A stretch of 62,569 nucleotides of DNA, counting the filler, from Sphacelaria rigidula (lineage: Eukaryota), in the NCBI GenBank assembly GCA_964200075.2. It is 11 parts of 11 records of this genome, joined end to end, with 100 filler letters (N's around TTAATTAATTAA, not from the genome) between each part and the next. Parts side by side here need not be neighbours in the genome. Positions count along the whole stretch, not along the records: positions 28,490 to 34,086 come from CAXNAA020025992.1; 10 more parts are not named here. One strand, written 5' to 3'. The translations under genes and the position numbers were made by a program. The notes beneath the pieces were generated by a model. That model searched no databases. It was not told where the DNA came from and saw nothing but the letters and a program-made list of their open reading frames with translations. This document shows positions 28,490 to 51,329 of the stretch, in pieces (position 1 is the stretch's first letter; every line of letters begins with the position of its first letter).

Positions 28490-29013
28490 CGCTCCCCGGG
28501 ATTGTGTCCATTTTTCGGATTTAGTTTCGCTCGGAAGCGCTTGCGTGGGGTTACTGTTCCCAGGTACTGTTGTTGCCATTGTCTGTAAACGCTAGGGCAT
28601 TTCGAGCCGAATATGCCAACAGCTGTATCTACACGACATTGTATCTCTTCGGCTGACAGCAACTTGGAAATCTCCTTTCTCACTAGTGCGGCCTCCCTTC
28701 CAAGGTCACCAGTTGAGGTTTCTCTGAATTTCTTATTGGCTGCATCTACATCGGCAAGCATTTGTTCATAAGCTCTACCTCCATCTATATAGGGTAACTC
28801 TGCTCGAAGTCGACTTATTGCGGGCTGAATCGTGAGACTTTTGGGAAAAGTCCCCGCGTGGTGAAGAGCCTGGAGCGACTTTTTCTGCTCCTCCAGCGAA
28901 TGGTTGAGCAGTAGCAGGCGTTCGAACGACTTGCAGATGCTTCTTTTCTCGGCCACGAAAAGGCTTGTGAACCTGTTGTACGCGAGACCCGGTCTTCGGT
29001 GAGTGGCATCCAT
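28490..29013 (-). CDS. Uncharacterised coding segment, 3'-truncated by the contig end, in frame with the Academ-like ORF
   Basis: About 174 open codons from ATG 29013 (MDATHRR...LNHSLEEQKKSLQALHHAGTFPKSLTIQP...), helical and charged composition. Confidence 0.5.
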
Positions 29014-29500
29014 TTTCTGCAGTCTGTACAACGTGCGGAAATTTGGCACAAGATGGTTCCGGGTCGAGAATGATGAGAAAAGTGTACAGGTGCGTAACCA
29101 GTGAAGGTTGACTTTTTCTGTACAGAATCGAGTTTGAGCGCAATGAAGTGCAAACTCTACCATTACACACGTTTTGGTGAGTAATGGTCTACCGAACACT
29201 TGAGGTTTCCGAGAGTGAACGGTAGTGCTTTTGCTTTTTGCCTCCGTGGCCGAGTCATCTGTCTCCGACCCGCTGCACTCCAAATCGGAATATGCAGTCC
29301 AGATGCCGGCTGCACTTCTTGACCCGACGCTGTTGTAGTCTTCATGTCCACCGTCGCGACAATAACAACTATTCGGGGATATTCCTAGACCCCATCCCTC
29401 TCCCACCACACTCCCGCCGCCAAACCGGCGCGGCTCATCGCTGTGCCTCACGCTGACTGCTGCCCTCGACGCATTGGTCGCTCTACTCGCCTTGGTCCTT

Positions 29501-29580
29501 CCACGGTACGCCGTGGATCCGCGCCTCCCACGGTTCGCTGTGGATCCGCGCCTCCCACGGTTCGCCGCGGATCCGCCCCT
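29501..29580 (-). repeat. Coding 27-bp tandem repeat x3 (S[AT]ANRGRRG)
   Basis: CCACGGTTCGCYGYGGATCCGCGCCTC repeated three times inside the ORF. Confidence 0.9.
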
Positions 29581-29639
29581 CGCAAAAATAGATAGTTCGC
29601 GTGCGCCGCCATTTCTACTGTCAGCATCACCACTGGAAG

Positions 29640-32090
29640 TCGCCTCGGTTGCCCCAGAGGACGGCGGGGGTAGCAAGCAGCGATCCTGGCAACCGCAGCT
29701 CAGCGTGCAGTTCCCCAGACACCTACATTTTTTGCAGCGGTGGTCTCTTTGTGGCGCCTTCGCCGGGTTACATGAGCACCTCAGGGTCCACACGTTCCCG
29801 GACCCATCAACATAAATGCGGCTTGATAAATACATAACGATGTTGTCCCGCGTGAGCGCCCCTGCCCTTCTGCTCTCCAGTTTTATGCCCCGCTTGTGAT
29901 GAGTCTGCTGGGGTTCAACAACCCAACCGCGGCCGTTGAAGTCCACCGTGGGCATCTTCTTCTGAAACCTCCCTCCCCAGTGTTCGAATACCGCGTCAGA
30001 CTTACTCACGTGCTTCCGACATGCGTCCAAGTCTGGGCAGCACCGGGAAGGCATATGCCCATGTACTGTGGTGATATTCAGGCGGATCTTGTTGACATAC
30101 GGTCCCAAGTCCCACCCCCCCGTGGCGAAGAGAAGCCCCGGATCCGTGGCGATTTGCGCAGAAGCGTTTTCGACCCTAGAAAAAAACATGGCGGCCGGCA
30201 GCTTCACGCTCTCATCGATGTCCACTCTCAGGATGCCGTCCTCTTCCGTGAAAATCGGTGCTGTGAACAGATTCGGCTTACGCAGGGCCTTCAGCACGAA
30301 ATCCCACAGCTTGAGGAAAGGAATCCTGGACACATATGGCAAGAGGTCGCATCCAGCCAAAAGGTAGGTCAACACAAATAATGCTACCTTCATAGATGGC
30401 GTCAATCACGTATACTGTCCGGCGGGCGCCCAAGCGCTCTCACTCCCATCCCTCAGATTCTCGGTAGAGCTGTACACCCTGTCCTCGAGGATGTACCAGG
30501 GGCCACCGCTCACAATCGTTCAACAGTGACATGCCCTGCGTCGGAGCCCTGCGGCGTGATATGCCCGGAGGACATTGCTAGCAACACAATAATCCACTGA
30601 TCAGTATCGATCGAAATCACCAGCCACTTCCTCTTGTGCTTCTTGAACAACCTCTCGGAGTGGATGATGCAGTGGACTGTCGACATCTCACCCTCACCTA
30701 TCCCGGGTCCAGCTGCGCTATGAATACTCTGATCAGGCCCACTGCCATTACGCCACCATAGCAAGGACTGGAAGGCTGGGGAAGCGCCGCACCACGCAGA
30801 CCCTGGTCTGCTGCCGCCGCTATTTCCCCGCTGCCTGTCAGTACCGCAATATACGATGGTGGAGTTTTCCGAACCGCTGCGCGGGTGCTAACACCCACCC
30901 TTCGCACCGTCGTTGGCACCGACGCAGCCCCGCTCCCCCGTCCGTCTGTCACCACCGCAAGATATGTCCGTTGTGTCGGTCCTGCGAAACCTTTGCCGTC
31001 GAAACCTCCGCGTTCCGCAGTTGCCGCCGTCCGCGGCGTCGCCGCTCCTCCCCCGCCCCATCTGGCTGGCTCACCCGGAGTCTGTCCGTCGAGATCCACT
31101 CCCAACAACGGATGCGATACGAGTTGGGCGGAATGGAGGCCCGAGTGATACAGTCGTTTCACCACCTGACTGGAGGACATGAGATAAATCGATGTATGAT
31201 GCAATATGTCAGCTGTCTCGTCGGTTTAGAATTGGGAGCGCCGGAGTCAAATACTCGTACCAAGCTCTGAAAAGCACAAATATAGGCGCCATTGATTCCG
31301 ATCGAAATCACAACAATTATCCCAAACATGAGCCAAGAAGTTAGATGCTGCTATATTAAGCAATTGCGCTTTGCAGAATCATGCAAGGTTGTGCCCTGTA
31401 GGGTGCGGGTATGTTCTGTAGGGTATAAGACTCCTTACAGAACTTGAAGAAATATAGGGTACCGGTACGAAAGTCTCACAGAAATTTAAAAACTGCCGGG
31501 TACCGGTTTGAAAATCTTACAGAAATTGCGGAACTTTTCGGGTACGGTACGGGAGACTTACAGAAAAACCGTGCCGACAATGGGGTTCGTCTTTAAGAGT
31601 ACACCCACGGTCCGGGTACGGGTAAACATTATGTCCAGAACTCACAGAACTGTCGGGTAAGGGTATGGGAGGCTTACAGAACTCACAGAAACTGTCGGGC
31701 AGGGTATGAAGGTTGCACAGAAAACCGTATCCGCAACCGGGTATCTCATCAAGAGCATACCGGCGCCCACCGATGACGGTACGGGAGGCTTACATAACTC
31801 ACAGAACTGTCGGGTAAGGGTTTGAAAGTCTTGGAAAGATTACACAACTGGCGGGTACCGGTATGAGCGCCTTACAGAAGTCACAGAACTGTCGGGTACC
31901 GGTATAAAAGTGTTACAGAAGTCACAGAACTGTAAGGTACGGTAAATACCCGGGAAAATACCCCAGTTAAATAGAAAAATCGTATCCTACAAAATACGAC
32001 CTTGGTATTCTCACCACCCCTGTGGTGGGACCTACCGTGGCGAACTACGGATGACCGTTAACAAAAACTCTGAACAACTTCACGGGGCTG
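29640..32090 (-). pseudogene. AcademX-like transposon protein, C-terminal half: XPG/FEN-like nuclease plus Cys-rich CXC domain
   Basis: Ordered motifs: VPPQGW.EY (about 32010-32035), CKAQLLN...FLAHVW (about 31320-31375), GIGEGE (about 30690-30705), VISIDTD (about 30600-30620), LLAGCDLLP (about 30337-30363), PDLDACRKHVSKSDAVFEHW, GRGW, and CSC-x11-CKKCRC-x3-CTLSCGCQDRC (about 29680-29780). Frameshifts near 30720 and 30515, a stop at 30406-30408, and a MITE inserted at 31384-32005. Confidence 0.75.
31384..32005. mobile_element. Complete minisatellite-bearing non-autonomous element with TIRs
   Basis: Left CAAGGTTGTGCCCTGTAGGGTGCG, right CGTATCCTACAAAATACGACCTTG, interior of ACAGAACTCACAGAACTGTCGGGTA repeats. 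No clean TSD. Confidence 0.75.
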
Positions 32091-32674
32091 ATAGAGAAAT
32101 ACTACACGAACACACGCAGTAGTACATATGCACGGCATCGTCAACATCTATCGGCTTCACGTACACCCCCACGGTGTACATGAAGGAGCATTCACGGCTG
32201 CCCGCTCTCTGGAAGCCCTTCGGCACGACGGAATCGTCGACGGCCTTGACGACTTCCAGTAGCAGCTAATATTGTGTGTTGTGCATGTCGATAACGGCCT
32301 GGGGTTCGATGACCACGACACAACCACCATCAACGTCGATGGCGTGCGTCTTGCTACCTGCTCCCCTGGTGGCGCAGGTGAGCCGCCCCACTCGAGTCTG
32401 GGGGTGATCCATTCAGACGGTCTGCAGTGCTGCTCATGTTTCGTGTTTCCACTCAGCAGTACCTCGTATCCCGTCAAATCATAAACGAAAAAACTTTCCA
32501 ACATTGATTTTTTGTTAGTGTGCAGTGTTGAATGAAGAAGTAGGGTGAATTGCTCGATGGGAGGTACATGTTCAGGTCATGAGGTTGTGTTTGGATTGAG
32601 CCCATGTTCATACCTCTCCAACATATATACCTGTGCTGTACCTGCAATCGGGTGTATCGACAACGTTATACCCT

Positions 32675-33178
32675 AACCCCGGGTAGGGGTATGGGAGGCT
32701 TGCAGAGCTCACAGAACTGTCGGGTACCTGTACTGGATAAAAGTCTCGCAGAAATTGAAGAACTTGTCGGGCATGGTACGGGAGACTTACAGAAAAACCG
32801 TGCCGACAATGGGGTTCGTCTTCAAGAGCATACCCGCGCTCCGGGTGCCGGTAAACATTATGTCCAGAACTCACAGAACTGTCGGGCAAGGGTATGGGAG
32901 GCTTACAGAACTCACAGAAACTGTCGGGCAGGGTATGAAGGTTGCACAGAAAACCGTACCCGCAACCGGGTATCTTATCAAAAGCGTACCCGTATCCCCC
33001 AGTGACGGTACGGGAGGCTTACAGAACTCACAGAACTATCGGGTAAGGGTATGAAAGTCTTGGAGAGATTACATAACTGTCGGGTACCGGTATGAACGCC
33101 TTACAGAAGTCACAGAACTGTCGGGGACGAAAATATCCCGGGTATACAGAGAACCGTATCCTACAGAACACAACCTTG
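32675..33178. mobile_element. Second copy of the minisatellite-bearing element, right TIR present
   Basis: 32770-33125 is near-identical to 31540-31895. Ends CCGTATCCTACAGAACACAACCTTG. Confidence 0.8.
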
Positions 33179-34516
33179 GAACCATGCAGCAACCTGGGAC
33201 TCGTGGAGCTGTTACCTCGGGATCGACATTGGCGTCGTATGCAACATTCGGACTGCCCCCGCCGACGTTCAAGCAGGCATCCAGACGTTGCACCCCGTGA
33301 GTGAGTCTTGGGGATCCTCCACATCTACCGTCAAAAGGGAGGGGATGGACCGGGGGGTGAATGGGTGGAGGGTTGAGAATCAGTGTGTTTGACACAGCGT
33401 GCCTTTCATCGTGTGTTTTGGTCGTCGAAACGAACAAAACAAGTGCGAGGTCGATTCTCGGCGCGATCACTTCTTCTTTCCCATAGTTGAACAAATATCA
33501 TTCCCATAGTTGTGGAGAGATATCAGAACGTCCACGCCCACCCTGGTCACTTCGGTAGCGTTGGCGAGAAGTAACCTGGAGGAGGCACCGAGAGTACGAA
33601 CTCAAGAACACTCGTGCAGTACCGGCCTACGCCAGCGGAGCTGTGGTTTTGATATATGATACTTGTATCTGATGCTGCAGCGTTCGATCGTGGTACTGTA
33701 GCACGGTTCAACTCGTCAAGTAGGTTTGTATGTCGGCGTCGACTCCGTAGGTGTTGCTCACCGTTTGCGGCCGTTCGAATCCTGACGGGGGTTCCGAACA
33801 TACGCTCCAGAAGCCAACAGGAGCACTATCAGCGATGTGCGTGATGGACGACGTAACCCTTATCTTTGGCGGACTGCACTATGCCCTCGGTGGCAGCGCA
33901 GTCCACAGCACCATATTCCACTGTGCTGTGCTGTGCTGCACTGGACTGGACTCTACTGCACTGTACCAGGTACAGTACTGTACTGTACTGAAGTTAGGTG
34001 TTGTGTTTTCACCCGGTGTAGCACATCGACTATCGATAATCGATATGATTTCGATAAATATCGGCGATATGCCATATCGGTATCGGNNNNNNNNNNNNNN
34101 NNNNNNNNNNNNNNNNNNNNNNNNNNNNNNTTAATTAATTAANNNNNNNNNNNNNNNNNNNNNNNNNNNNNNNNNNNNNNNNNNNNCCGAGGCCTACTGA
34201 TTATCTTGCATTTGGATGACAGCTTACAATGAGTTACTTTATTATCTGGTATCGCCACTTCCAGAGACAGCCACGTCTTATACACTGCCTCATGGGTGTC
34301 TCACCATGCCGGAGGAGGGGGTGGGGGGGGGGGGTATCTCCATCCCTGCGCAGCCTCGGGTAGAAACAACATACAGTGGACGCTGCTCATTGAGACAGAT
34401 TTCGACGGATGCTTGATGCTTGCGCATATTTTGTACCGCCACAACGACGTTTATTTTTATATAAGCGTGCTTTTGTGATCCCTTCCCCTCCTACCGCTCG
34501 TCTTTGGCCTATGCAG

Positions 34517-45117: not shown

Positions 45118-47139
45118 GTGCGTTGTTGTACATATTCAATCTCACCTATTTTTGTACATTGTAAGCGTCTTCAGCCAGACTGTTTTGGTCGATGAAACAG
45201 CTGCGATACTTTCGAGTCGTCACTCTCGTTTTCTGTGTGCGGTATATATATATATATATATTATATATACACAAGCCGCACGGGACCCGGGGCTGCGCCC
45301 CGGTCCCGTCCGTCTTTTTCGAGGGTCACGGTACTCTTGCCTTGCCAAGCCCTCGTGATAATAGATCCTCTCTCGAAATGTTCATGCCCGTCGGAAACAT
45401 TGCAGGACCACCGCGATCGCGCGTCCGTTCGAACGGTCGCGAACGCATGTGTACCCCCGCACAAAGTAAAGTACGAATCCNNNNNNNNNNNNNNNNNNNN
45501 NNNNNNNNNNNNNNNNNNNNNNNNTTAATTAATTAANNNNNNNNNNNNNNNNNNNNNNNNNNNNNNNNNNNNNNNNNNNNCCCTCAACCGAAATCAGGTT
45601 AATATGAGGGTTTCGCTCAGTCCTGTACTCTCACGGCTTTGGTGAAAGGCGTGGAATGAAGTATCTACGCCATCGGGGTGCATTGCGCCGAAACAAAAGT
45701 CCCTGGGCACAGCCACTGAAAGTGTGACCAAGGCACTGCTTGCGGGTTGAAGCTCATTCTCGTGAACAATATGTCATAATATTATTGGCTGCAACTGGTA
45801 GTCGCCAAGCGTTAAAACCACGCGGTGTTACGGCATTCGTTTTGTATCGGAGACTGCTCCAAGAGTTATGTACATTCTTCGATGAGAGCCCGCCGAATAG
45901 GACTCATCGTACACCACGCGACTGTCACGTGGGCGACACCGGTACCTATCTCCACCCTCCCTCTTCCCGCAGACGATCCCCCGATAACACATTGCCCCCA
46001 CTGCGCATTCGCGACCGGCTGCAGGTGCCGGCCGGAAACCTGGCAGACATAGGCCTTGTGGCCGCAGGACACTCAGCAGAAGAACCCGCACACCTCACTG
46101 GTAAGTGCTTGTCATGCAGAGGACGACATACGGACAGGTAGCGATTGACGTTTCTTGCCTCGTTTAAGGGCCAATCGTAGGCCGCTCGCACGCAGCCTTT
46201 AATATGGGAAGTACTGAAGTCCGACTCGTCGCCGCTGCCCCCGCCCCCCAGGCGGCGCCGCGCTGTCAACACCCGAGGCTGCTTCATTTTTCGAAACCAA
46301 GAAACCCCGGATGATGGGCATGCCCTCGTCCTCCACGCCGGGCTCGCATCGGAAAACTGCGCCAACCCGCCTGCGCATATGGAGAATAAAACATATCCGT
46401 CCCCGGGTACTGATGGATGCCGCGTGGGATCAAGGGAACGAATGGAGCGATAGAAGAGGAGCCGATCCCGTTCCTTCGGCACCGACATTGTGGGCACTGG
46501 AGTACACCACCGGGCGCTCACGGGCTGCGTTTCCCGTCTTACGCAGACTGCCGCTGCTGTATCGGCAGCAACAGAGGCGTCCAATGGCAAACCCTGTGAC
46601 CCGCCCCCCCCTACTGCGCTGAGACAGTCTGCCCCGACGAGATTGGAACGCCCCGGAAGAGGCCACGCGGCCGGCGGGAGTGTAACCCGAATGGCAACGC
46701 GGAGGGGCCGTCATGTACGCAACGAGCAACACACGAATCAGCCACCAACCGAAAGTCGCCTGGCTTCATCCGTTCGGCGTACAAGGGCCTCTTCTGCTCC
46801 AGTACGTGGCCGCGGGAAGCGGCCGCAATGTGGCAAGCCCGGTGCGGATCGGCCGGCCCTTGGGCTGTGGTTTGGTGCACACAGTGTACAACGGATCGCG
46901 CGCGGGGCGACAGGCGATGTGCTGCGTGCCATCGGCCAGCCACTGACTTCAATCACTTCGGTGCACAGGAAGTGCGCCTGGTGGCTGACTGGTGGAGTGA
47001 ATATAGGGATGGTAGGCTGTCCACCGCGATTCATGGTGCATACCGCCCCTCCTCAGAATGCCTGTGCTCGACAGACGCTTGTTTCCACCATATATTTCGT
47101 TCGTCCGAGTGTTCAAAATCCCACTGCAACCGAAAGAGG

Positions 47140-47390
47140 TGGCACTTTCTACGATAGCCCCCCTTCACAACCAGCCCAAAAGTGTCGCGAAAAATAAGGA
47201 CATACAGCGCCTGATGTTGGGGTTCAGGCTGCATGAAGCGTATCATATGCACGACATTGGCGAGGACGAACCCACGCGTGGAAAATCCCAGCCACTCGTT
47301 GTGCTCGGCTTTTTCCATTTTGATTCATGTGAAGATGTTGCCTCCCCAAACCATGCACGTTTTTGGGGGGGGCTATCGTAGAAAGTGTCA
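47140..47390. mobile_element. MITE with TIR TGGCACTTTCTACGATAGCCCC, copy 2
   Basis: TGGCACTTTCTACGATAGCCCCCC ... GGGGGGCTATCGTAGAAAGTGTCA; interior homologous to 9980-10145. Confidence 0.88.
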
Positions 47391-47629
47391 GATGTGACAT
47401 CTGTGGGATCCAACAGGATGCCGAAGCCATTGCTCGGACATCTTGGCGCCGAGCAGGAGTGGCGTGCGAGGCAATGACGGAGTACTTCACCGTTGGAGGG
47501 GGGGGGCGCTGAGTTTCATTGCTGCTCTCGCAGGGGAACCAGGTGCTGACGGCCAACAGCACTTTTTGCAATACCTGTCGCTGCTCCTTCAATAATGACC
47601 CATATTTTACAAATAACAGCCGATCCCCG

Positions 47630-48010
47630 AAATTGAGGATGGAGCTTTTCATTGAGGATGAGAACCCGAAGGAGTCAAATCTTTGTATCCACACTAAATC
47701 TTCGAGATACGGTTTCATTTCTTCACCTACTGGTAGCTACTGACAACTTCTACACGCCCTACAAATTTGTATTTCGATAACCGAAATGTTGGGGTCCTAG
47801 ATGAAAAATCAATATCGGGATATGTCGGCGATCGGATCGGATGACCTAAATACCCCAAATTTGGTTTACCCCCTAGGACTCCAACATTTCGGCTATCGAG
47901 ATTCAAATTTGCGGGGCGTGTAGCAGTTGTCAATAGCTACCAGTAGGTGAAGGAATGAAACCGTATCTCGAAGATTTATTGTGGATACGAAGATTTTCAT
48001 CCTCCGGGTG
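47630..48010. mobile_element. Truncated copy of the CACGG fold-back MITE
   Basis: Palindrome centred near 47835; aligns to 37863-38240. Confidence 0.85.
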
Positions 48011-51000
48011 CGGAAAGTCGCTGGAAAGATAATGGCGGATCTCGGACGTCACGTGACCGGTGTAGCCTCGGTCGCTCTGCGAAGGGTCGAAATATCATAA
48101 ATATATTGGCGGAGGGTTTGGAACAACCTTATTCCTGATGGGTTGCCTGTGCAAGAGATTGCGAAGCGCCATTTGTTATGCACAAACAGAGGTGAGGTTA
48201 TCAGCGATCTCCAGCGTAGGCTTGGCGCGATGGGGTGGAGGTTGAATGACCTACGGGCGGCGGTGATCATGGATGCTCCCGCCGCCATCGCCTCTCTTTC
48301 CCCGGAGCAACGTGAAGATGCCGTGCGAAAAGACGGGTGGATCGTGCGCTACGATATCGTTGCCTCCGTGGAGCGCTAGTAGATGATATCGAGAGAAATC
48401 TCGTGCTCGCCGCTGAGTACATGACCAAACTGCCAACGTCGCTACGCTGTTCCATGCGATCTTTCGGTGACATATGGGGGATGGGGTTACAGGAGAACCT
48501 ACGCCGCAACAGGTGGCGCATGCGACCGATACGACCGCGCCGGCTTCACTGGCCCCCGACGGGAGAAGGAAGGGCAGTACAAAAGAGGAGATTTTCTCGT
48601 ACTTCTTGATGACAATGCTCATCACCGCCGTGCTGTAGCGCGCATATAGGCCTCCCCATGCATGGGTGCTGGCCCAGGTACTAAAGTCTCACGGTGCGAC
48701 AATTAAAGTGAACGATTTAATGGCGAAACCTGGGATCTGTTTGTCCGACAGCCAGACGAGGAAGCGGGAGGAACTCGTGGTCCAGTGGCGGGAAAAAGAC
48801 GATGCCATGCCCCAGAGGACGGAAGCGGCGGCGGCCGCGTTTGATAACTGCGACATGCATGCCACCATGAACCTCAAAGGCTCGCAATATAAGCCCTTCA
48901 TTTCCGCAACAGCCGTGGTAGTGGAACAGGATCACCCAGAGCTTGGTTATTTACAGCTGTCTCCTCATTCGGAGTGGACCCCGCTCAAGGATCTTACAGT
49001 GGCGGATATGAGGGACGGATTGCGTCGTGACAAAACCCAGGAGATGTATGACATACACGTTATGGACCTCTTCGGGAGTGCTTGCAGGAGCGCAGCTAGT
49101 GGCCGAGGAGGCGACGAAATTTTCCTGGAAACGGAATTGAGAAAGGTAAGTCTGCCTGGTCGTCTGTTCCGGTGTATCAAAGCGTGTTGCTTTGATTGTG
49201 GCACAAGCACCATCCTGGAGTCGCGATAAATGTGCTGAATATTCGCCCATATTTTCGGGGGTGGACACTTCATGCTGTATCATATAATCTGTCGGGGTTA
49301 CGTCTACGCGTTTATTCTTTTCGGGGGGATGTGGGGGTGGGGGTAGTCCATAATCACTGGCTGACCTTCACGTCGCCAAACCACGGAGGATCCATCGCAT
49401 ACGTGCCGCGCATGTGCTCGTGTCATCGCCCCAGGAGCCACCGCCCGTGCCGTACGGGGAATGTTGCGACCAGGGTGTGACGAGGCTGACAATGTGCAGT
49501 AATGGCATGACGGTACCCTGTCCGGTACATATGCCGCTGTCTCGCCTGACCGTAACGAAATCTACGAGCAATGAGTTTGCGTTATACGGCAATTGTGTGT
49601 TGCAAGTGTGTTCCGACTTCTTATGGAGTATCAACTTTATGCCCTTTCGCACGGTGCGTATCGGAGTCATCTGCAGGGTGTCCAGTCGGAGCCCCGCATG
49701 GCGCAACAGACCGTGAACATAATCATCCAAGAGGGATCCACGAAAGACTATGAAGCAAACGAGCGTGTCCTTCACAGGATCTGCCGCATTTTAAACCTAG
49801 GCGAGCGCGATGGACGCCACCGCGCCGTGATAGCTGGGGACGAGGTATCTTCCATGGGGTTTACCGTTACTGTCAGATGCACCCAGAGATGTTGGAGCAG
49901 GTGTTCCTGTGGCCCGGGGATTTCCACATTCTCATGCACCTTGCCAAGGCATTGCTGAAAGGAACCTTGGCGAAAGTCCTCGGTGGTGACGATGCCAGCG
50001 CTGCAGAGGGGACCAACTACCGCCGGGCACACCACCAGCTCACTGTACTTTACGAGTCCTTCATTGTGGTCATCATGGCCATCATGCGGGAGGAGCTGGG
50101 GGCAGCGTTTCGCGAAGGAGCGCTCGGCGCTGAGCAGGTCATGGAGTGGATTAACCGCCGGGCAGTCGATCACAAGACGTTCGATTTTGGGCACTGTTCC
50201 TCCTCGTCGACAACCCGGCGTACGCGGGGATGGGGAGGGGTGGGCGCACTGAAGATTACAAGCTGCGCAATGCCTGCCTGCGCATGGCGGTGCCGATTTT
50301 CTGTGGTTACGGGAAGGACCGATGCCAGTGGGAAGTTACTGTTCACTTGGGATCCTGACACGCATGACCAATAACGACCACGGGGCCATGACCGAGTCAT
50401 TATCTACCTCCTTGGGCGGGGGTGCTTTTTCCCGCCTGGCATTGGATGAGAGGTAAAACGTGTCAAACTGCGGCTACAAGGGAGTAACGAAGAAAATTAT
50501 GAAATCGTTTGGCGCAAAGCTGACAGCCATCGTGGGCGCGCGGGAGAGGGCCATTGGCAAGATCGAACAAGCTTTCTTTCCACCTCCTCACAAGGGGAGC
50601 GCCGTGAGTCGTGCGTGACTGCCTCGCCTTTAGCACCGACAGCCGAGAGAATCTAGTGGCGTCGGACGGCCGCGTGCTCACAGTTTAGGAAGGAGCCGAA
50701 ATCCTCGATGTCCCCACCTAGTGTGAAGAGGTGTGGACAGGGGTCATCAAGAGATGCGTATTCAGGGGTAAATCGGCTGACAGCACACTAAAGTGGAAGA
50801 TGAAATTCGTTCCCCCGGCACGCAGCAGCAAGAAATCAACGAAACAGGAGGGGAGGTCTTCGGCCTTGAAGAAGAGTAGGAACAGTCTCAGCATGCAGGT
50901 GGTGGAACTTCACAACATACTCACTTCGCTTCTTAGCCGTGGCGACCTTGTCACGCCGGAGGACCTCGTGCAAGTTGTACTACACCTCGGGACGGTCGTC

Positions 51001-51329
51001 CCGCAAGCCATGGCGATCGTGGATGGAGATACGTTCCTGTCCGATTTTTGTCCGCTGCTTGTGCCTCACCCAGGGGGCAGCGCGGAGAAGCGTTTCGGAC
51101 ACGTAGCCCCCCCCCCCCCCCCCCCACCCCCCCCCCCAACCCCCCCCACACCCCCGCCACCACCCCCCGCCACCCCCNNNNNNNNNNNNNNNNNNNNNNN
51201 NNNNNNNNNNNNNNNNNNNNNTTAATTAATTAANNNNNNNNNNNNNNNNNNNNNNNNNNNNNNNNNNNNNNNNNNNNAAAGCACTGTTTTAGGCTTGAAC
51301 CTCATCTCGGAGTTAAACCTCAATTCGCA

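Follow-up and report, generated by a model that had tools for sequence, protein, structure and literature searches.

A truncated and decayed copy, very probably of a multi-copy DNA transposon with AcademX-like architecture, in the brown alga Sphacelaria rigidula

The Academ superfamily, reportedly described by Kapitonov and Jurka in 2010, provides the closest counterpart to a decayed nuclease-encoding fragment that lies in a stretch of DNA from the brown alga Sphacelaria rigidula. AcademX, one lineage of Academ, is said (Kojima, 2020) to carry a transposase-XPG fusion in one protein. According to the available portion of PMC10045372, AcademX encodes a nuclease and makes duplications of 3-4 bp, and AcademH encodes a helicase. 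The available text of PMC5751038 states that, as of 2017, Pfam offered no match to the Academ transposase core and that Academ is most abundant in Pucciniomycotina; that of PMC3627910, that Academ elements can carry a RecQ helicase. In the literature searched, we found no link between Academ and Ectocarpus or Phaeophyceae as host.

The stretch analysed (hereafter the window, 62,569 nucleotides from assembly GCA_964200075.2) consists of 11 joined short contigs of about 5.6 kb each, separated by spacers of the form N44-TTAATTAATTAA-N44. The nuclease fragment is on the sixth contig, at positions 28490-34086, and a transposase fragment of the same family is on contig 9, at 45581-51177. An earlier note, made from the sequence alone, had read the first fragment as an XPG/FEN-like nuclease with a nine-cysteine domain, forming the C-terminus of an AcademX protein, and had taken the two contigs together as nearly the whole of that protein. 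We propose that the fragment on the sixth contig very likely represents an internal and dead portion of a DNA transposon that occurs in many copies in brown algae; its intact relatives code for a single four-part protein of about 1800 amino acids (aa). The order of the parts is an N-terminal region, then a transposase of DDE type (DUF6589-like), a 5′-nuclease that is nearest XRN, and a nine-cysteine, CXC-like cluster. This architecture is AcademX-like in its domain order.

The family to which the fragment belongs is readily recognized. Three proteins were found among 1038 candidates, namely the window's own gene model and the closest named relatives, the S. rigidula proteins P0002 (67% identity, E 4.6e-111) and P0003 (71%). 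Since the fragment matches an S. rigidula protein at E 4.6e-111, its motifs are not a matter of chance. An exhaustive HMMER search returned 121 proteins at E ≤ 1e-3, with 63 at or below 1e-10 and 12 at or below 1e-30. The named relatives that were looked up (13 of 20) are all from brown algae and all labelled "unnamed protein product"; their hosts are S. rigidula (at least five), Ectocarpus sp. CCAP 1310/34 (at least six) and Pylaiella littoralis. A scan of metagenome contigs with alignment A5, which holds nine family members, gave 77 pattern matches, none of which was confirmed, and found no relative there.

In the window copy the recognizable parts and lesions are these, numbered along the whole stretch:

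29241..31171, minus strand: decayed, truncated part of the open reading frame (ORF) for the nuclease and cysteine cluster, from tblastn of P0002, P0125 and P0129, depth and loose ends
30989..31102, minus strand: degenerate N-terminal nuclease half, GVDL.. plus GGFDG, from a weak tblastn match to residues 78-141 of the relative P0072 (E 0.049)
30687-30698, minus strand: GEGE, conserved acidic metal-site residues, from translation; G-E-x-E...H is invariant in A5
30600-30614, minus strand: SIDTD, conserved acidic metal-site residues, from translation; D-x-D is invariant in A5
30513..30516, minus strand: 1-nt frameshift from the GEGE/SIDTD frame to the LAGCD frame, where the P0002 tblastn pieces overlap in different frames
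30406..30408, minus strand: in-frame TGA where P0002 and P0003 have Trp, from comparison of homologues
30346-30360, minus strand: LAGCD(LLP), fifth conserved acidic residue, where the helical (H3TH-like) part starts; G-C-D..P does not vary in A5
29977-30036, minus strand: PDLDAC..H....W helix, from translation, inside the model part that aligns to XRN1
29923-29934, minus strand: GRGW motif, from translation, inside the same model part
29677-29778, minus strand: nine-cysteine cluster, CXC-like and presumably zinc-binding; its nine Cys columns are kept in alignment A1

All the motifs that the earlier note had listed are therefore present, but on the minus strand (29677-30698) and in two reading frames, GEGE and SIDTD in one and LAGCD in another. 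GEGE and SIDTD contribute four of the conserved acidic metal-site residues. The series E, E, D, D, D is invariant in the nine members of A5 and is retained in the window copy; the first two Asp of the nuclease motifs are seen in relatives only.

The link to a transposase comes from fused relatives. Searching with the N-terminal part of P0072 picked out five proteins from 5426 candidates: P0128 (759 aa), P0129 (1802 aa), P0130 (727 aa), P0131 (1046 aa) and P0132 (1080 aa). In P0129-P0132 the transposase-like region is continuous, via a shared linker ("..GGAKHANK.."), with the nuclease. Their upstream region bears "..QDNCD..", "..IIAGDEETY..", "..PGDWHLLYHMAKALL.." and "..NYRRAHH..", and so do the ORFs of contig 9. 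A search of proteins of 1100-3140 aa with A1 showed no fused form; as P0129 exists at 1802 aa, this was a false negative. The corresponding part of contig 9 is:

48606..51027, plus strand: decayed transposase and linker part of the same family, from tblastn of P0129 residues 459-1134

This copy is spread over at least four different frames and is hence decayed. On the sixth contig, P0129 residues 1306-1672 map to 30839-29752 (tblastn). The two contigs thus match both halves of P0129, and the proposal that transposase and nuclease are halves of one protein is upheld. "Nearly a whole" protein was too generous: the contigs, both frameshifted, cover about 1043 of the 1802 residues (58%); residues 1-458 and the greater part of the N-terminal half of the nuclease are missing. 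As the earlier note allowed, the two pieces may come from different copies. At the very end of contig 9 (51028-51177), the transposase-linker frame enters a proline-rich low-complexity stretch; this sits exactly where the nuclease domain of the relatives starts, and there the contig ends. The proline-rich stretch likely caused the assembly break.

What kind of nuclease is fused to the transposase? Two AlphaFold models of relatives were searched against three structure libraries. The first, of P0072 (40 sequences), is confident at residues 231-411 only. Its Foldseek matches, listed to rank 19, are all XRN-type (best E 4.2e-3), and its top five VIA rows are XRN1/XRN2/Rat1-type (Z 6.9-8.9; the following row, 4.7). 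The second model, of P0011 (101 sequences), spans GEGE to the cysteine cluster with a predicted local distance difference test (pLDDT) score of 84.1 and a predicted template-modelling (pTM) score of 0.81. With Foldseek against the PDB, its matches listed to rank 24 are all XRN1/XRN2/Rat1 (best E 2.2e-3, hence none at E ≤ 1e-3), and the rows after the XRN group have E of at least 1.8. With VIA against 48,161 chains, the top five are XRN1/Rat1, at Z 9.1-10.7, aligned over 214-226 residues at a root-mean-square deviation (rmsd) of 5.0-5.6; model residues 33-355 align with XRN1. Next come EXO1 (Z 6.5), XPG (4.9), T5 exonuclease (4.5), FEN1 (4.4 and 4.3), GEN1 (4.3) and T4 RNase H (3.5). A search of BFVD gave four matches at E ≤ 1e-3 (6e-5 to 9.5e-4), each of them to an XRN exonuclease of a giant virus; XRN types fill the first 18 rows, and XPG types come only with E values of 0.76-1.6.

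On these models the nuclease is placed in the FEN/XPG/XRN 5′-nuclease superfamily, with XRN1/XRN2/Rat1 clearly nearest. Both the fold and the ordered acidic motifs of the FEN-like (PIN-like) superfamily are found; of the XRN features, the catalytic N-terminal fold is found and a Pfam XRN_N match is not. "XPG/FEN-like" was accordingly right for the superfamily and too specific for the nearest family, XRN standing at Z 9.1-10.7 against 4.3-6.5 and Pfam giving no XPG match. The structural check that the earlier note had suggested, prediction followed by Foldseek, gave, for relatives, the expected superfamily fold, with XRN nearest, and a cysteine cluster modelled at pLDDT 64-72 (P0011 model).

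The nuclease resembles XRN1/XRN2 (Rat1) in giving its best structural match there in all three libraries, and GEGE..H and D-x-D seem to resemble the motifs of XRN. XRN enzymes carry GEGEH and D-x-D...L. The relatives also have N-terminal motifs, "DLPVWIHQG" and "VCYDR..P.IK..EQ.GR", which we take to resemble the first two XRN acidic motifs. Unlike XRN1/XRN2, however, the nuclease shows only 12-16% identity and no XRN_N match, is much shorter, lacks the XRN C-terminal domains, and belongs to a multi-copy family in which it is fused to a transposase and a cysteine cluster. With the Rad2 family (FEN1, XPG, EXO1 and GEN1) it shares the superfamily fold and acidic motifs in matching order, but the structural matches are clearly weaker than those to XRN, and Pfam XPG_N and XPG_I give no match.

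These results leave some room for a tentative proposal, which we regard as possible without favouring it, that the nuclease was derived from an XRN-type 5′-3′ exonuclease and not from XPG/FEN, in a distinct stramenopile transposase-exonuclease-CXC lineage, perhaps together with similar animal "CXC-domain" clusters. If so, transposition would proceed via processive resection of the 5′ strand, possibly on RNA or RNA-DNA, rather than by a flap cut. Moreover, should the reference AcademX nucleases also prove XRN-like, its "XPG" label would have to be revised for that lineage.

The nine-cysteine cluster follows the nuclease, as the earlier note had stated, and its nine Cys are kept across the family (A1). 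In the window copy their spacing is C-x-C-x11-C-x2-C-x-C-x3-C-x3-C-x-C-x3-C. The nine conserved Cys and the C-x-C ... C-x3-C-x-C-x3-C spacing are like those of the Tesmin/TSO1-like CXC domain (PF03638); unlike in that domain, the Cys spacing of the first half differs, and no Pfam TCR (PF03638) match to the cluster was found at E ≤ 1 (P0128-P0132) or E ≤ 10 (P0002/P0003). Other Zn3Cys9 clusters are those of LIN54 and the MSL2 CXC. The Atlas neighbours of P0128 residues 20-600 are animal clusters with scores of 0.93-0.94, to be read as leads only: one of 66 members (score 0.94) has PF03638 on 36% of its members, and one of 1399 members (0.93) is named "Tesmin/TSO1-like CXC domain-containing protein". 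After the cysteine cluster there is a low-complexity Arg/Gly-rich stretch, within which a 27-nt tandem repeat occupies 29497-29581 in 3.1 copies.

How far does the likeness to AcademX reach? As in AcademX, one long protein in the relatives P0129-P0132 contains a DDE-type transposase followed by a FEN/XPG-superfamily nuclease, and the family is multi-copy and decaying. On the other side, the nuclease, although it shares the superfamily fold, has no Pfam XPG match and a Z of 4.9 for XPG as against up to 10.7 for XRN, and the host is a brown alga. The transposase itself points to DUF6589 (PF20231). In the Atlas, a contig-9 ORF falls beside DUF6589 clusters (17 of 30 hits, score 0.96), which come from Cnidaria and Mucoromycota and have the family on 18-19% of their members. 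In Pfam, P0130 matches DUF6589 at E 0.031, and the contig-9 ORFs have no match to it at E ≤ 1.

Several points weigh against our reading of an AcademX-like transposon with an active nuclease in its intact copies. The best DUF6589 match, that of P0129 residues 685-935 (E 6.3e-5, 22.3 bits), does not reach the Pfam cut-off of 27, and we found no literature text equating DUF6589 with the Academ transposase. The fused proteins P0129-P0132 are gene predictions. No termini, terminal inverted repeats or target-site duplications were seen, both window copies being truncated. Pfam XPG_N, XPG_I, XRN_N and TCR have no match at E ≤ 1 in the window pieces or in 25 relatives (cut-offs were E ≤ 1 for P0128-P0132, E ≤ 0.1 for 18 relatives and E ≤ 10 for P0002/P0003), and searches of PDB chains with a single sequence or a 21-sequence profile gave chance-level rows only. 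The fold matches are modest (PDB Foldseek E 2e-3 at best, TM about 0.35, rmsd >5 Å). The N-terminal nuclease half is poorly modelled, residues 1-230 of the P0072 model having pLDDT below 50, and given this a full active site is not demonstrated. Lastly, the whole mechanism proposed below for intact copies is conjecture.

Some of these points would suit the remnant of a transposon that has this architecture but stands outside Academ, that is, a separate DUF6589-type DDE superfamily or lineage which had acquired an XRN-derived nuclease and a CXC cluster by fusions of its own. The nuclease is nearest XRN rather than XPG and has no Pfam XPG match, the DUF6589 link is below threshold, and no link between Academ and brown algae was found in the literature searched. 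Nevertheless, we consider such a separate origin unlikely. The order of transposase and FEN-superfamily nuclease is the one reported for AcademX, and Cnidaria and Mucoromycota, the taxa in which the DUF6589-like Atlas clusters occur, overlap with the range of Academ, which reportedly includes animals. That the range includes fungi and that AcademX encodes a nuclease are stated in the available portions of PMC5751038 and PMC10045372, respectively. The AcademX label of the earlier note is thus apt for the architecture and too specific as a classification, resting as it does on that architecture plus a sub-threshold DUF6589 match.

The extent and the number of copies also speak for the transposon reading. 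Positions 29241-31171 form a repeat unit common to many other copies, as seen from tblastn, word depth and the loose ends of run contigs, which bunch at 31171 and at 29232/29241. On the upstream side of the fragment, homology with other copies ends at about 31171. The range of 29640-32090 given by the earlier note is therefore too long, since its part 31172-32090 consists of flanking sequence and a 41-nt minisatellite. Both ends of the copy are cut off within the ORF. At the 3′ side it is cut at 29241, about 10 codons short of the natural stop of the family, and past that point it reads through into an unrelated repeat; it thus does not form the C-terminal end of an intact protein. The loose ends, inspected by eye, suggest that other copies may extend upstream into the linker known from full-length relatives, and downstream, also by eye, they seem to run some 10 codons further and to finish in an acidic "..DDF.F", as P0002 does.

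In three runs (X1-X3) of one organism, 108-114 short contigs, 90-100% alike, fall on 28490-31400. The summed word depth is about 280-1530 at 29274-31233, 12-26 at 31234-31400 and 51.7 at 28588-29175, so that the depth of the fragment is 10 to 100 times that of its flanks; the summed depth is not a copy number, and it fits many similar copies. The differences among the covering contigs are mostly transitions. The nuclease family is multi-copy and not a single host gene.

The window copy has decayed as well. The TGA is reproduced, with 0 differences, by a run X3 contig covering 30350-30497, and a run X9 contig (30407-30534) crosses the frameshift site with no gap. Since the TGA and the frameshift site are seen in contigs of independent public runs, these lesions are not errors of one assembly. 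There is probably a second frameshift near 30765-30820, within low-complexity sequence that leaves its exact place uncertain. For the N-terminal nuclease half, low-stringency tblastn gave one weak colinear match (E 0.049) amid much noise; the spacing of GVDL.. and GGFDG equals that of IDLPVW..RHGFDG in relatives, and colinearity would follow from this. The window copy is a dead, non-functional fragment: it is truncated and lacks the transposase, its N-terminal nuclease half is degenerate, and its reading frame is broken by a stop codon and by one or more frameshifts. It is therefore inert.

Copy number and decay bear directly on whether this could be a gene or pseudogene of the host, namely a divergent paralogue in the XRN/FEN family that has no connection with mobile DNA. 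The XRN-like fold would agree with such a gene, and so would relatives labelled just "unnamed protein product" in nuclear assemblies. However, each genome carries many diverged copies, covered in fragments and at high depth, relatives have the nuclease joined to a DDE-type transposase-like region, and the window copy is truncated at both ends in the ORF, with a frameshift and a stop. A host gene is thus already largely refuted and highly improbable. The earlier note had itself named what would speak against its reading, namely that no locus joined the two halves and that the nuclease was a single-copy host gene; P0129-P0132 link both halves, and the nuclease is multi-copy. An integrated piece of a giant virus (e.g., a phaeovirus or other nucleocytoviricota element) with a viral XRN-like exonuclease is scarcely credible. 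In its favour, XRN exonucleases of giant viruses head the BFVD matches (E 6e-5 to 9.5e-4), and integrated phaeoviruses are known in brown algae. Against it, identity to the viral proteins is 9-18%, no higher than that to cellular XRN, the domain beside the nuclease in relatives is a DDE-type transposase and not a viral gene, and the 54 window ORFs scanned against Pfam include no viral gene.

Returning to the AcademX-like transposon, it is tempting to propose how intact copies might work. The DDE transposase would make 3′-OH nicks and carry out strand transfer, while the fused structure-specific 5′ nuclease would cut or trim the non-transferred 5′ strand or flaps at the ends of the element, thereby serving as a second-strand nuclease. 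The zinc-cysteine cluster may aid DNA binding. A functional analogy, and no more than that, is offered by TnsA/TnsB of Tn7, in which a DDE transposase is joined by a separate nuclease activity for the 5′ strand. Unlike the family described here, Tn7 is bacterial and has separate proteins and a restriction-enzyme-like nuclease fold.

A sizeable set of brown-algal "unnamed protein products" without Pfam annotation can now be named as transposon proteins, and the full-length relatives, of up to 1802 aa, could define a stramenopile transposase-nuclease-CXC element. They also raise the question of whether an XRN-like or an XPG-like 5′ nuclease was recruited, and what part it plays in cut-and-paste transposition.

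The remaining features of the sixth contig lie on either side of the fragment:

28557..29232, minus strand: separate, low-copy repeat outside the element, with a coiled-coil ORF like P0052 (Met at 29013), from tblastn, its own contig and loose ends at 29232
31172-34086: upstream flank of low depth, with 41-nt tandem arrays and a 1229-nt duplication

The depth of the 28557-29232 repeat is lower than that of the transposon fragment. In the exhaustive HMMER search, query residues 474-617 match solely two small proteins, P0052 (228 aa) and P0059 (153 aa), and this coiled-coil ORF belongs to no Pfam family. Because the reading frame is open across the junction between the fragment and this repeat, the deposited 594-aa gene model, P0001, is a chimera of two repeats. 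On the other contigs, 54 further ORFs of at least 130 aa have no Pfam match at E ≤ 1e-3 except a spurious one to CxC7, a KDZ-transposase-associated Cys cluster. That match (contig 5, 24302-24919, minus strand, E 8.4e-4) was rejected: its translation is unlike a real protein, no stretch passes alone, and it is sub-threshold and probably spurious. The window looks like a set of repeat-rich, gene-poor short contigs. No inverted repeats were found on the sixth contig. Its 41-nt tandem unit, with a consensus of about CTTACAGAAGTCACAGAACTGTCGGGTACCGGTATGAAAGT, forms arrays at 31415-31945 and 32680-33133, just upstream of the fragment; these arrays are inside the duplication of about 1229 nt, in which 31511-31810 and 32740-33039 are 90% alike.

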